From a virus (taxonomy: Duplodnaviria > Heunggongvirae > Uroviricota > Caudoviricetes), in IMG/VR virus record IMGVR_UViG_3300021142_000006: a stretch of DNA of 64,000 nt; one strand, 5' to 3'. The translations under genes were made by a program, and so were the position numbers. Position 1 is the first letter of the stretch. Each line of letters starts with the position of its first letter. Below are positions 3,836-25,900 of the stretch, in pieces. The notes under the pieces are model-generated. The model made no database searches and was not told where the DNA came from. It saw only the letters and a list, made by a program, of their open reading frames with translations.

Positions 3836-4606
3836 ATGAAAAATATATCATATACAGGGATTATTTTGGATAATAAATCCAGACAACTATTGGCTGAAAA
3901 GTATAAGCAAATGATGCCTGATGGTTGGGAATGGATTGCTCACCATATGACAATAACTATGGGTTCTTTACCCAAGGAAAAACTTGATTTGCTTGGTACA
4001 GAACAATCTATTACCGCTGAATCTTTAGGTATGACCGATATGGTTATGGAAATTGGTGTTTCTGGGTTTGAATCCAAAAATACTCAACCACATGTAACAT
4101 TAGCTGTTAATAGAAAAGATGGTGGTAAACCATTCATGTCAAATAACATAACTGATTGGCAACCAATTGAAGAAAAATTTATACTAACAGGCCAAATTAA
4201 AGAAGTGGGACAACCTGATCAACCTATGAAAAAAAATTTAAAAGAAATTGTGGATATCAACGATTTACCCTTTAAATCGGATGTAACAAAAGCTGGTGGT
4301 AAAATCTATCAAGTTGGCGGTGCTGTACGAGATACCTTCTTGAATAAAACATCTAAAGACCTTGATATTTTAATTACTGGTGTACCTTCAGATAAACTAC
4401 AATCAATATTGAGTAAATACGGTAAAGTGGATCTTGTTGGTGCATCATTTGGTATTATCAAATTTACACCCCCAGGTGGTGAAGAAATTGATATTGCTTT
4501 ACCACGTACTGAAAAGGCTAAAAAACAGATCGTGGTAACTTTAGGTCAAAACGATATATTTATAGAATATAACGATTCAATGAATGAAAGAGAACTTAAA
4601 GGTTAA
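3836..4606 (+). CDS. cca: 2H phosphoesterase domain fused to the N-terminal part of a class II CCA-adding enzyme
   Basis: Two HxT motifs (HMT, HVT), then IYQVGGAVRD...KDLDILI...EIDIALPRTEK (motif A and third carboxylate); ORF stops about 29 aa after RTEK. Confidence 0.88.
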   Translation: MKNISYTGIILDNKSRQLLAEKYKQMMPDGWEWIAHHMTITMGSLPKEKLDLLGTEQSITAESLGMTDMVMEIGVSGFESKNTQPHVTLAVNRKDGGKPFMSNNITDWQPIEEKFILTGQIKEVGQPDQPMKKNLKEIVDINDLPFKSDVTKAGGKIYQVGGAVRDTFLNKTSKDLDILITGVPSDKLQSILSKYGKVDLVGASFGIIKFTPPGGEEIDIALPRTEKAKKQIVVTLGQNDIFIEYNDSMNERELKG

Positions 4607-5579
4607 ATGTCACATTTGTGATTTTGAAACTACAGCTAAAGGTGTTGGTAGGCATTACCATAACATACACGAATTAAAATTATCCGAAAATGCGGATATA
4701 TATCTGATGTATTTTGATTATAACAATCCTGGAATATTGGATGATATAAAAGATATGATTCGAAACGGTATTGGTTTGAAATCCATACAAAAAAAATATC
4801 ATAATATTGGTACTGGGTCGCTACCAATGCTAAAAAAATCATTAAGTAATATATACCCAGATGATTTTAATAAGAAAGTAACTGACAGGGGTAAGCAAAC
4901 CTTACTCAATAATACAGGGTCACGTTACTCTGAAAAATTTATTGAAAGAATGGGTGGTTTTAAAAATCAAACATTAGCAAAAAAAGCGGCTAAAGTCGCT
5001 TCAACTAATGTTTCAAGGTTAGAAAAATTATCTGAAATGTTAAAGTATAATAACCCCTCACATAATCCACAAATTATTGAAAAAAGAAAACAAATATACG
5101 ATGAAAAAACACAAGAAGAAAAAAGGGCAATCATTAAAAAACGATTAGCTACTTGTGAAAAGAATCAATCTTATTTAAAACGAGCTGAAACAATAATAAA
5201 AAAATATGGTGGGTTTGTTGCGTATGGTAATAAAACGGCAGGTCATTCAAATTGGCATGATAAGTTAAAACAAATGTTAATCGAAAACAATATAATAACA
5301 GAATCGGAACAAACTGTCGTTAACAATTACACAAGTGATGAGGTTGATTTAGAGAAAAAAATTATTATTGAGCTAAATGGTGATTTTTGGCATTGTAATC
5401 CAAAATTTTATAATGGTGACTATTATCACCCTTTTATTAAAATGACAGCTAAACAAATTTGGGATAAGGATGAAAAACGAATATCTGATTATATTCAAAA
5501 TGGTTGGCGAGTGATTGTTATTTGGGAATCAGATGATTTAAACGAAAAGATTAACGAATTGAAAAAAATATATGGATAA
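4584..5579 (+). mobile_element. free-standing homing endonuclease gene (Vsr/DUF559-like, C2H2 finger at N-terminus) inserted in cca
   Basis: CHIC..HYHNIH finger; C-terminal DEVDLEKKIIIELNGDFWH...GWRVIVIWESD; overlaps both cca halves. Confidence 0.85.
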
Positions 5580-6600
5580 GAAAAAAATATTACAACTATT
5601 AGAATTAAATGGTTTCAATGTCATTAACGGAGTTGTTTACAATAAACCAGAAAATATAATTAGTTTTTTAAATAAAACAATTAAGCCGACTAAGATAAAA
5701 AATTTAGCTGGTCATAAAGGATTTGATGTGACTTCCGACCATACTCTACCAATTGAAAAGGATCTTGAAAGGCGTGATTTTACTATCAACTCAATAGCTA
5801 AGGATGCTGAAGGTAATCTAATTGATCCATACAAGGGTATTGAAGATATTAAAACAAAAACTATACGTTTAACAAATCCTGAAGCTTTTGCTGATGACCC
5901 TTTGAGAATGCTAAGATCGGTTCAATTTGCTTCGAGGTTTGGATTCACAATTGAGCCTCATACTTTTGATATGATTCAAAAAAACGCCGATTCAATCAAA
6001 ACAATAGCGTTTGAAAGGGTTATAGAAGAGTTTCAAAAGATTGTAGATAAAGGTTCACCCTATGTTGGTGTCACTTTGTTGGTTAAGTCTGGTTTATATG
6101 AAGGTATTTTTGATAGCAGGTTTCTTGGCTCATTCAAACCATTTAATCATGTCAACAAACTAAGTGAATTTATTTATTGGTTATTACAACCAATTACAAA
6201 AGACCCAGCAGCTTATTTCATGAAAGTTATGAAAGGTGATTTGAAGACTCATGCTGAAATGAAAGCCTTACAATTGGTTATGGATAAACCTGTGAGAACT
6301 GACCTTGAGGATAAATGGATGGTTTTTGGTGTAAATAAGATTGCGCCGACAATGTTTGATAGTTATTTCATATTGAACGAATTGGATAACGTATTACCAT
6401 TTTTCGAAGATGGTAGATATCCGATATCATATAAACAATTAGCTATTAATGGTAATGATCTGGAAAGTCTGGGCTTTAAAAACGAAAAAGTTGGTCTTGG
6501 ATTGAAGTTGGCTATGGATGCTGTTTACTCTGATACCGTTGCAAACGATAAATCACAACTTTTGCAATATGTGTCTGGTAAAATGAAAACAAAAGGTTAA
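5572..6600 (+). CDS. cca: C-terminal part of class II CCA-adding enzyme
   Basis: GHKGFDV...KDLERRDFTINSIA (motif B), DDPLRMLRSVQFASRF (motif D), ERVIEEFQK, C-terminal LAINGNDL; no HD domain. Confidence 0.9.
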   Translation: MDKKKILQLLELNGFNVINGVVYNKPENIISFLNKTIKPTKIKNLAGHKGFDVTSDHTLPIEKDLERRDFTINSIAKDAEGNLIDPYKGIEDIKTKTIRLTNPEAFADDPLRMLRSVQFASRFGFTIEPHTFDMIQKNADSIKTIAFERVIEEFQKIVDKGSPYVGVTLLVKSGLYEGIFDSRFLGSFKPFNHVNKLSEFIYWLLQPITKDPAAYFMKVMKGDLKTHAEMKALQLVMDKPVRTDLEDKWMVFGVNKIAPTMFDSYFILNELDNVLPFFEDGRYPISYKQLAINGNDLESLGFKNEKVGLGLKLAMDAVYSDTVANDKSQLLQYVSGKMKTKG

Positions 6601-7601
6601 TAACTAAATTTATAACCTTTTGTTTTTTTTCTTTCACCACGAATAACCCTATAAATCATTTCTGATGTTATTTCTAATTCGGTTGTTGCGTCATGTATAT
6701 TTTTAAACTCTTTAATTAAAACACCATTTAAACCATACATTTTAACTGGTTTCAGAACTGGTGTTCTATCATACGCACCACGATTATGTTCCTTTAACGT
6801 TTGAAATATTTCATATTTCCTACTCAATCTCAAACCATCCGAATTATTATACATATTATTTTTTATAAAATCCAAATCTTCAAAAGAATAATATAATAAT
6901 TTACATATACAACCTTTTTCGGATTTATATTTGGTATATATAATTTTAGTATCAGTTAACCCAAATGAATTAAACTTTTCTTTTAATTTTAATATAAAAT
7001 TTTCAGAACCAATAATTGAAAACCTTAAAATACCTTCTTTGTTCATTTTTGATATTGAACCATCGCCATCAAAAACACCTCTAACAAAATCCCAAAAATA
7101 ATCATCATTAATATTAGGATATTCACAATCAAAAGATTTATTATTTTGTAATCCTAAACAATTTAAATCAACACACATTTTCTTAGATGGTATCTGTAAA
7201 CTAAATCTTTTATATGTTTTATTAGTTCTTTTATCATAGACATCATATTCACTTAACTTATGAGTGGAATTTAATTCTTTTCTAACGATATCAACTAATT
7301 CATAATCTTTAGATGTTAATACTACCTTAGACCATTTTTTACTAATATACCCATCTGATAATAACAAGCCTAAAACATATGCTTTAGACGATGAATTTAT
7401 ATTTTCAAAAAAAGTAATATTCATACTATTTTTACAGTTTTTAGAATTAAAATTTTGTTTTTTAGTTTTTATATTATTTTTAATTAAAAATTTTCTGACA
7501 CCAGAAGCGGTATAGCCCAAAATATCACCAACTTCTTTTAATGTTTTATTTTCCTCAAAATAAATTTTTTTAACCTCTTGTATTTCTAATTTCTTTTTCA
7601 T
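6597..7601 (-). mobile_element. free-standing LAGLIDADG homing endonuclease with C-terminal NUMOD1-like domain
   Basis: YVLGLLLSDGYI and FVRGVFDGDGSI motifs; KPVKMYGLNG..KEF...GYKFSY tail. Confidence 0.88.
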
Positions 7602-7649
7602 ATCTTTACTTTATTATAAATAGCATATAAAAATTAAAAGTTAATAATT

Positions 7650-8180
7650 ATGACAAAAAATTTAGAGGTTGTGACCTTTTTTGATTTTGATGGTTGTCTT
7701 TTTTCAACACCTTTACCTGAAACTGGTAAAGATATATATCAACAAGTTACAGGTAAACCATATCCTCATATAGGTTGGTGGAGTAAACCTGAATCACTTG
7801 ATATGGATATATTCGATATTAGACCAAAATCTGGTATGGAAGAAGTATATCGTAATGTTATGAAAAACCCAGAGGCACATGCTGTTCTACTTACAAATAG
7901 ACAATATAAATTGGGTGATGAAGTTAAAAAAGTATTGGATAGTCATAATATGACATTTGAACATTATTCTTATAAACATAATGATCATGAGAAGGGTGAC
8001 AGAATGTTGGAAATAATGAAAAAATACTATTCTGGTGTTAAAAATATTGTATTCTATGATGATGACCAAAAACACCTTGATAATGCTGAAATGGTATTAG
8101 CTGGTAAAGATTATAATCTTAAAACAGTTAAAATATCTTCAGATTTAGATTACCTTGATCAAAGCGATAAAATTAAGTAA
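7650..8180 (+). CDS. HAD-family phosphatase (Swiss-Army-Knife RNA-repair type)
   Basis: FFDFDGCLFSTP motif I, GWW, LLTNR, FYDDD. Confidence 0.75.
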   Translation: MTKNLEVVTFFDFDGCLFSTPLPETGKDIYQQVTGKPYPHIGWWSKPESLDMDIFDIRPKSGMEEVYRNVMKNPEAHAVLLTNRQYKLGDEVKKVLDSHNMTFEHYSYKHNDHEKGDRMLEIMKKYYSGVKNIVFYDDDQKHLDNAEMVLAGKDYNLKTVKISSDLDYLDQSDKIK

Positions 8181-8235
8181 TTTTGGGTTTATTTTTTATT
8201 GAACCATAGTTATATTTAAAGAAAAAAATATAATT

Positions 8236-25812: not shown

Positions 25813-25828
25813 TGAAATATAAATTATG

Positions 25829-25900
25829 TGGCTCGTACCAGGATCGAACTGGTGACTCTGGAGTTTAGAATTCCGAATGTTGCCGCTACACCAACGAGCC
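25829..25900 (-). tRNA. amber suppressor tRNA (anticodon CUA); amino-acid identity unknown
   Basis: GGCUCGU/ACGAGCC, GUGU/ACAU D stem, CGGAA-UUCUAAA-CUCCA, 5-nt variable loop, ACCAG-UUCGAUC-CUGGU; canonical spacing puts CUA at 34-36; only 3 of 5 anticodon-stem pairs. Confidence 0.78.

Follow-up and report, generated by a model that had tools for sequence, protein, structure and literature searches.

A CCA-adding enzyme gene divided by a Vsr-like homing endonuclease cassette with a conserved tail and head in a Caudoviricetes genome

Genes fractured by homing endonucleases have already been described, and the closest match to the locus reported here is an intein-less SbcD-like locus from Lake Gatun (Dassa, London, Stoddard & Pietrokovski 2009, PMC2677866). 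In that locus, the two halves lie in order with a Vsr-like free-standing endonuclease gene between them, the 3' end of the endonuclease runs into the beginning of the downstream half, each side of the break bears additional residues that intact homologues lack (25 aa and 9 aa), the origin is freshwater and phage-like, and a hairpin has been proposed upstream of the endonuclease start. Apart from the hairpin, of which a candidate is discussed below, the same features are found in a 64,000-nt stretch of the IMG/VR record IMGVR_UViG_3300021142_000006 (Caudoviricetes), hereafter the window, whose coordinates count from its first letter. Here the divided gene encodes a CCA-adding enzyme, and the extra residues form a new C-terminal extension of the upstream half (tail) and a new N-terminal extension of the downstream half (head). 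It is proposed, with a probability of roughly 0.8, that this is an intein-less fractured gene that was cut by a mobile cassette and whose halves are translated separately and reassemble as a two-chain enzyme. A full-text literature search returned no paper in which a homing endonuclease divides a tRNA nucleotidyltransferase, the nearest candidates being judged by title and abstract and, to that extent, the fracture of a CCA-adding enzyme gene has not been reported previously.

Three open reading frames (ORFs) on the plus strand, each in a different frame, make up the locus: ORF1 or N-half (3836..4606, 256 aa), the endonuclease ORF (4584..5579, 331 aa), and ORF3 or C-half (5572..6600, 342 aa), with overlaps of 23 nt (4584-4606) and 8 nt (5572-5579), respectively. 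A first-pass annotation of this DNA had placed a split CCA-adding enzyme on the two outer ORFs and an endonuclease overlapping both, and ORFs and overlaps are exactly as it gave them. The Pfam profile PolyA_pol (PF01743) is divided between the halves, its positions 1-74 falling in ORF1 residues 157-231 and its positions 82-126 in ORF3 residues 56-99, downstream of which ORF3 matches PolyA_pol_RNAbd (PF12627). The N-terminal portion of the head domain typical of class II nucleotidyltransferases (4226..4516, equivalent to residues 56-126 of the solved enzyme 6ibp) contains motif A (GGAVRD...DLD) at ORF1 residues 161-177 and the BxA motif R224-T-E226, followed by K227. The C-half proper (5710..6600), which matches the solved enzyme 1miv with an E value of 2e-20, contains the loop GHKGFDVTSDHTLPIEKD, motif B (RRDFTIN, 5770-5790), motif C, motif D (DDPLR, 5893-5907), and the neck/body RNA-binding region; thus, motifs A, BxA, loop, B, C, and D of the class II head domain and the RNA-binding neck are all present across the two halves. 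When aligned to class II CCA-adding enzymes of solved structure, ORF1 extends as far as RTE (6ibp residue 126), and the alignment of ORF3 starts from residue 138. The RTE is the BxA motif, and the flexible loop is the stretch from BxA to the RRD of motif B (Hoffmeier et al., PMC2910056). Since the break falls directly after BxA (RTE-K), the whole loop remains on the C-half. The endonuclease had initially been placed in the flexible loop; its location at the loop stands, but the alignment puts the break at the N-terminal edge, with the loop intact and joined to motif B on the C-half. The core motifs are those that class II CCA-adding enzymes and the CC- and A-adding enzyme pairs possess, and the break lies in the loop region that governs A-addition (PMC2910056, PMC7014341). 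However, the CC- and A-adding enzymes are two complete paralogues, whereas here one polypeptide is cut, with motif A and BxA on one side and the loop and motifs B-E on the other.

The residues gained by each half are absent from uninterrupted alleles. The tail comprises 29 codons (A228-G256) and a stop (4517..4606, plus strand), forms the 5' end of the cassette, and is predicted to be a β-hairpin, and the head comprises 46 codons before GHKGF (5572..5709, plus strand), forms the 3' end of the cassette, and is predicted to fold as helix-β-β-helix-β. The ATG of the C-half overlaps the endonuclease stop in ATGGATAA. Neither tail nor head occurs in the uninterrupted alleles of three relatives (loci L001, L015, and L010), so that comparison with intact relatives, which had been suggested as a check, agrees with the initial claim of a new tail and a new head. 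The tail pattern is conserved in L003, L005, L007, L014, L006, L009, and L013. The junction can be read from a filled and an empty allele with identical junction residues (L014 and L015), in which the intact allele reads RTEK-K-x-G-A-GYxGF and the cassette starts after RTEK; the last four codons of the head in the window, KNLA (5698-5709), probably correspond to the native loop residues K-x-G-A. Moreover, the layout of N-half, endonuclease, and C-half with homologous endonuclease, tail, and head recurs in L003/L004, L005, L007+L011, L014, L009, and L013, that is, in at least five diverged lineages, with enzyme halves 35-80% identical across loci. The endonuclease stop and the C-half start overlap by 8 nt (window, L003, L005, and L014), 11 nt (L009), or 14 nt (L013), and overlaps of 6-69 bp at this place have been described for fractured genes (PMC2677866).

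The mobility of the cassette is apparent from the distribution of mismatches. Between the window and L007/L011, mismatches are dense up to 4515, number only 13 within 4516-5712 (a count that omits 4873-4940, a gap at the ends of the L007 and L011 contigs), and are dense again from 5713, the near-identity block with L007 beginning at 4516 and that with L011 ending at 5712. The cassette is thus ~99% identical to the L007/L011 copy, whereas the flanking gene is just 65-75% identical. Because the edges of this block coincide with the outer ends of tail and head, the exchanged unit is tail, endonuclease, and head together, about 4517-5709, ~1.19 kb. A quick maximum-likelihood tree built on the enzyme body places verified split alleles in between intact ones, for example L011 beside P0146/P0150/P0142, L013 beside P0051, and P0148 (from L014) within a tight cluster of intact alleles; rows P0197, P0206, P0213, P0228, and P0243, labelled as split by a regular expression only, were not counted as verified. 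Filled and apparently empty forms also coexist, since contigs from two freshwater runs hold both the window form and a variant in which 4521 is linked to 5930 through 233 other letters, as many as an uninterrupted allele should have. Co-occurring strain variants in runs X9 and X19 match the window as far as 3922 and again starting at 5930 but differ between these positions, and the whole 2-kb stretch (3922-5930) around the cassette can therefore be read as a recombination patch with edges well outside the cassette. No close DNA relative of the window was found in the INPHARED phage collection, and searches of IMG/VR with ORF1 and with the endonuclease gave no matches.

These features are best explained by the following mechanism. 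The cassette would invade a three-domain gene right after BxA (RTE-K), at the start of the flexible loop, bringing 29 codons and a stop that complete the upstream half, a Vsr-like homing endonuclease gene whose AUG is perhaps masked by a hairpin, a start codon that overlaps the endonuclease stop, and about 42-46 codons that open the downstream half. The presumed target of the endonuclease is the conserved RTEK...GYxGF coding DNA of intact alleles, which it would cut, and the whole cassette would then be copied in. The separately translated halves would reassemble non-covalently into a normal class II nucleotidyltransferase, and the β-hairpin of the tail and the α-β-β-α-β of the head would co-fold into a small α/β mini-domain at the cut, in place of an intron or intein.

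Removal of the insert at the RNA level is the first alternative, in which a group I (or II) intron containing the endonuclease ORF would be spliced out to give one continuous CCA-adding enzyme. The sharp edges of the cassette are intron-like, ~60 nt past RTEK are almost invariant in nucleotides, and Vsr-like endonucleases are known in group I introns (PMC2677866). However, when 4300-6000 was scanned against Rfam at E <= 10, neither an intron (RF00028 or other) nor another credible RNA family came up, although a 1-kb ORF insert could hide a core from such a scan. No structured non-coding RNA of ~200 nt or more flanks the endonuclease ORF; ~65 nt lie upstream of the endonuclease start, and just ~65 nt fall outside the ORFs. 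The head, where the 3' flank of an intron would lie, is codon-periodic, substitutions at the three codon positions being 8/2/21, 18/9/22, and 20/8/20 in comparisons among the window, L003, and L005, to which the pS and pN/pS of the head also refer. Its synonymous sites are saturated to the level of the enzyme body (pS 0.59-0.77) and its pN/pS is 0.12-0.49, and this coding signature leaves no place there for the 3' half of a ribozyme. Furthermore, tail and head are in frame with their halves, and the stop of the former and the start of the latter are conserved across lineages of 20-80% identity. The most telling locus is L006 (5001-6488), in which the N-half with a homologous tail, a TAA, a 15-nt spacer, and the ATG of the C-half with a homologous head follow one another in the same frame; this is a split locus without any endonuclease, and it keeps tail and head though the halves are only 15 nt apart. 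The coding head and the short L006 spacer together bear out the initial remark that the locus has no room for a ribozyme core. Two group I splices drawn by eye were discarded: 4507/5689 fits the U/G rule but deletes the conserved E of BxA, and 4519/5695 results in a longer loop; the coding signature of the head and L006 render both moot.

Splicing at the protein level would require tail and head to act as an atypical split intein that ligates the halves in trans. The locus architecture and the endonuclease family are the same as in the split-intein fractured genes with Vsr-like endonucleases (PMC2677866), the tail, a β-hairpin, recalls intein block A, and an NG-VV-YN stretch of the head vaguely resembles blocks F/G. 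Nevertheless, the nucleophiles, block B, the terminal Asn, and the size of the HINT domain that characterize those genes are missing here. The tail starts with A, S, I, P, L, K, or R, with no conserved Cys/Ser; a TxxH block is absent; the YN is not conserved (QS or YG elsewhere) and is followed by ~22 residues; and no C/S/T occupies the +1 position ahead of GHKGF. Tail and head together amount to 65-75 aa, far under a HINT domain (~130 aa or more), and no Pfam intein/Hint match was found at E <= 10. Both RNA and protein splicing therefore appear very unlikely, neither of them retaining more than a vanishing share of our confidence.

If the halves are not joined, they could still be relics. The split might have killed the enzyme, leaving halves that are decaying or a protein of which only the 2H phosphoesterase domain of ORF1 (see below) works, while the host CCA-adding enzyme, presumably at hand, serves the phage tRNAs. 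Such an outcome is judged improbable. The catalytic motifs are all intact in both halves, pN/pS is 0.27-0.41 for the C-half proper and ranges over 0.26-0.56 in both halves, and pS is near saturation between lineages; by these ratios, both enzyme halves and the head are under purifying selection. In addition, the split is kept in at least six lineages, one of which lost the endonuclease, and split-allele contigs have been assembled in many freshwater/lake metagenome runs between 2012 and 2018. Neither of two run searches listed an RNA run, an outcome with no bearing on expression.

The order of events could also be reversed, with a gene already split, and already bearing an interacting tail and head, before the endonuclease came, and with L006 as the ancestral state. 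L006 does exist, and free-standing endonucleases typically lie between genes. However, the near-identity block ends at the outer edges of tail and head and not at the endonuclease ORF, and filled alleles have very close intact relatives without tail or head (L014 and L015; L011 and P0146/P0150). Moreover, the L006 head is nearer the window type (49%) than are the L009 and L013 heads (8-24%), which makes loss of the endonuclease in L006 more parsimonious. A split that preceded the endonuclease is thus held to be decidedly improbable, and insertion of the whole cassette is preferred.

With regard to the reassembly of the halves, an AlphaFold (AF2) model was built for L006, reading its single stop through (TAA=G) and aligning it with intact enzymes, N-halves, and C-halves. 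With a mean predicted local distance difference test score (pLDDT) of 89.6 and a predicted template modelling score (pTM) of 0.70, the model can be laid over class II CCA-adding enzymes along ~360 columns (6qxn, E 5e-16), and it shows the tail as a β-hairpin and the head as helix-β-β-helix-β. When a 99-aa tail-head segment with short anchors was folded alone, pTM was 0.58 and the pLDDT of the head 85-91. In a PDB-wide structural alignment of the segment, small βαββαβ domains align across strand 2 of the tail and the whole head, so tail and head may be read as one mini-domain that straddles the cut; one such fold match is 1fe0 (56/66 residues, rmsd 2.5 Å, Z 4.9). Tail and head probably hold the halves together. 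A search of the AFDB clusters with the mini-domain gave no significant match (best E 0.41), and atlas feature and structure matches to the head were at chance level. Comparison of tail and head with adjoining enzyme segments, as decayed duplicates of them, gave Smith-Waterman scores no better than controls (p = 0.05-0.99 against 2000 shuffles), and this origin was rejected.

Several observations, besides the possible priority of the split, weigh against the proposed explanation. Contact between tail and head is suggested by a single-chain model of a relative, L006, computed with unpaired alignment rows. The fold matches of the segment are weak (Z <= 5.2), so nothing can be inferred from them about the ancestry of the mini-domain. 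Synonymous change is depressed in the tail (~90 nt; pS 0.06-0.30), which might be attributed to its overlap with the endonuclease start and with a regulatory hairpin. The candidate RNA hairpin (4557..4586, plus strand) places its 3' arm over the endonuclease AUG and could serve in translational control; in RNAalifold it has 12 pairs, no covariation among window-type sequences, and a weak z-score of -0.7 for the window. Hairpins at the equivalent place beat shuffles in L009 (z -2.7) and in L013 (z -3.3, with GGAGG paired with CCUCC), and hairpins near the endonuclease start have been described for fractured genes (PMC2677866). Finally, the nucleotide-templating motif D is EDxxR, and it reads EDPLR in L001, L005, L011, and E. 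coli but DDPLR in the window, L003, L006, and L014, an E-to-D change that would also suit a decaying enzyme.

Activity of a two-chain enzyme would be consistent with purifying selection on the halves, with the L006 model, and with the precedent of phage Aeh1, where nrdA is split by mobE and the tails created by the insertion are essential for activity (Crona et al. 2011, PMC3045599); this precedent had been invoked in the first-pass annotation, and rightly so. In both cases, a free-standing endonuclease fragments the catalytic core, active-site elements come to lie on two chains, the insertion provides new C- and N-terminal tails proposed as interaction domains, and the endonuclease overlaps the downstream half. 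However, mobE is of another endonuclease type than the Vsr-like one, and Aeh1 is a single case, whereas tail and head here are a conserved mobile module. The Aeh1 tails are needed for tetramer, not heterodimer, formation, and the enzyme activity that is known in Aeh1 is here putative. Relative to the SbcD-like locus, the head is far longer (42-46 aa), tail and head belong to a family conserved across lineages and predicted to co-fold, and both an endonuclease-free derivative and a filled/empty polymorphism are documented. Furthermore, the eight enzymes listed in that study act in DNA synthesis or repair, while the host gene here is an RNA-repair/tRNA enzyme. What is new is the RNA-metabolism host enzyme, the co-mobile, structured tail/head module conserved family-wide, and the endonuclease-free descendant.

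At even odds, a lineage of Vsr-like endonucleases may have evolved a portable, non-catalytic, split mini-domain (tail and head, ~70 aa, ferredoxin-like in the model) that restores function by protein complementation and enables insertion into a catalytic core. If so, the split mini-domain would represent a third solution alongside self-splicing introns and inteins and, once installed, could outlive the endonuclease, as in L006, giving rise to permanently two-chain enzymes. The idea that endonuclease genes neutralise their own insertion via protein interaction tails, which came from the single case of Aeh1 NrdA, gains family-level evidence here from the many lineages, the sharp edges of the cassette, the filled/empty polymorphism, and the endonuclease-free descendant. 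In addition, a natural class II enzyme cut exactly between BxA and the loop could be a system for studying the role of loop anchoring in the C-to-A switch, and the tail/head pair could serve as a small natural split-protein complementation tag.

The endonuclease gene itself (4584..5579, plus strand) is free-standing and encodes a protein with an N-terminal C2H2-like Zn finger and a C-terminal Vsr-like nuclease domain related to I-Bth0305I. The window protein alone has no significant Pfam match, although it matches phrog_13076 (endonuclease), and members of its family carry PF18741, DUF559, NUMOD3, or Vsr domains. Searched against the PDB, the family profile finds 3hrl (DUF559 endonuclease-like, 3e-5), 3r3p (I-Bth0305I, 8e-5), and 1cw0 (Vsr, 2e-4), by which the intervening ORF, proposed early on to be a homing endonuclease, can be assigned to the Vsr-like homing family related to I-Bth0305I. 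Invariant residues include E263, D267, and H270 in an ELNGDFWH motif, and pN/pS of the ORF is 0.12-0.51.

The gene that was invaded seems to have been larger than the CCA-adding enzyme. In the uninterrupted IMG/VR relative L001, one 719-aa ORF spans a 2H domain, the CCA-adding enzyme, and a HAD domain, and aligns to ORF1 minus its last 29 residues, then to ORF3 minus its first ~46, and then to the window ORF 7650..8180. The predicted 2H phosphoesterase domain (cyclic phosphodiesterase-like; 3836..4210, plus strand; ORF1 residues 1-~125) has the HxT motifs H37-M-T39 and H86-V-T88, both invariant in the alignment; its match to Pfam tRNA_lig_CPD is weak (18-20 bits, under the cutoff of 23; E 4.5e-4 at 20 bits). 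Its homologues are stand-alone proteins of ~145 aa with PF08302 or are fused to polynucleotide-kinase-like P-loop kinases, and the homologous domain of the L006 model matches the 2H protein 1iuh in a structure search. The HAD phosphatase gene (HAD_SAK_1; 7650..8180, plus strand) is the third domain of the ancestral fusion; it matches PF10307 (E 2.7e-8, 34.3 bits, cutoff 25.6) and is 71% identical to the C-terminal part of the L001 ORF. The CCA-adding enzyme and HAD are a single ORF in L001, L003, L014, and L015. From the single chain of L001, the HAD_SAK_1 match, and the 2H domain, the parent gene can be read as a three-domain tRNA 3'-end healing and rebuilding enzyme composed of a cyclic phosphodiesterase, a CCA-adding enzyme, and a phosphatase. 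The joining of a nucleotidyltransferase to an end-healing phosphoesterase or phosphatase is shared with the Swiss Army Knife RNA-repair fusions (HAD_SAK_1/2) and the E. coli CCA-adding enzyme, but the latter has an HD phosphohydrolase domain, whereas the healing domains here are 2H and HAD.

A second homing endonuclease gene (LAGLIDADG and NUMOD-like; 6597..7601, minus strand; PF14528, PF22083, phrog_4645) sits between the CCA C-half and the HAD gene and, thus, two endonuclease genes spread the three domains of the window over three polypeptides. The close relative L010 carries the LAGLIDADG gene at 96% identity (7185-8189), L011 retains both ends of its ORF as a 94-nt deletion scar (1690-1782), and one of the two freshwater runs mentioned above also has a form without this gene. 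A further insertion is found in L010 (4758-6014), the closest relative of the window, where a stand-alone 2H gene is separated from an intact CCA gene by a different endonuclease (DUF559-like, 212 aa) together with a 53-aa ORF. Together with the split at the flexible loop, the LAGLIDADG and DUF559-like insertions indicate that the three-domain gene is a recurrent endonuclease target, with three different break points in different phages, and that phage tRNA-repair Swiss Army Knife genes are hot spots for endonuclease invasion. The L010 CCA-adding enzyme (P0142) is a mosaic that is near-identical to the window ORF3 from about residue 125 and diverged before it. In the distant split lineage L009 (2044-3477), the C-half ends with the 2H domain, and the N-half has an unrelated N-terminal region of ~270 aa. 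As the 2H domain can be N-terminal, the last part of the C-half (L009), or the product of a separate gene (L014), and was not seen at the L013 locus, domain order around the CCA core is fluid.

Regarding the genomic context, 5/28 tRNA genes of the window encode CCA (Ile-GAU, Gly-UCC, Gly-GCC, Thr-UGU, and Asp-GUC), in accordance with the initial observation that most of them lack it, and the 23/28 phage tRNAs without encoded CCA are no more than circumstantial with regard to the addition of a complete CCA rather than of CC, A, or poly(A). Scanning for sigma-70 promoters gave 30 hits against 30.4 expected by chance. A Shine-Dalgarno (SD) sequence occurs in 0/10 inspected gene starts (including 2814, 3464, 3754, 3836, 5572, 7601, 7650, and 8236), and the leaders are A/T-rich; SD-less A/T-rich leaders are typical of Bacteroidota-type initiation and would fit a Bacteroidota-infecting phage, one that invests heavily in the supply and repair of tRNAs. 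All 28 tRNA genes are on the minus strand. One of these tRNAs (25828-25900, minus strand) has the anticodon CUA of an amber suppressor and is labelled Pyl by ARAGORN, and the genes examined end in TAA.

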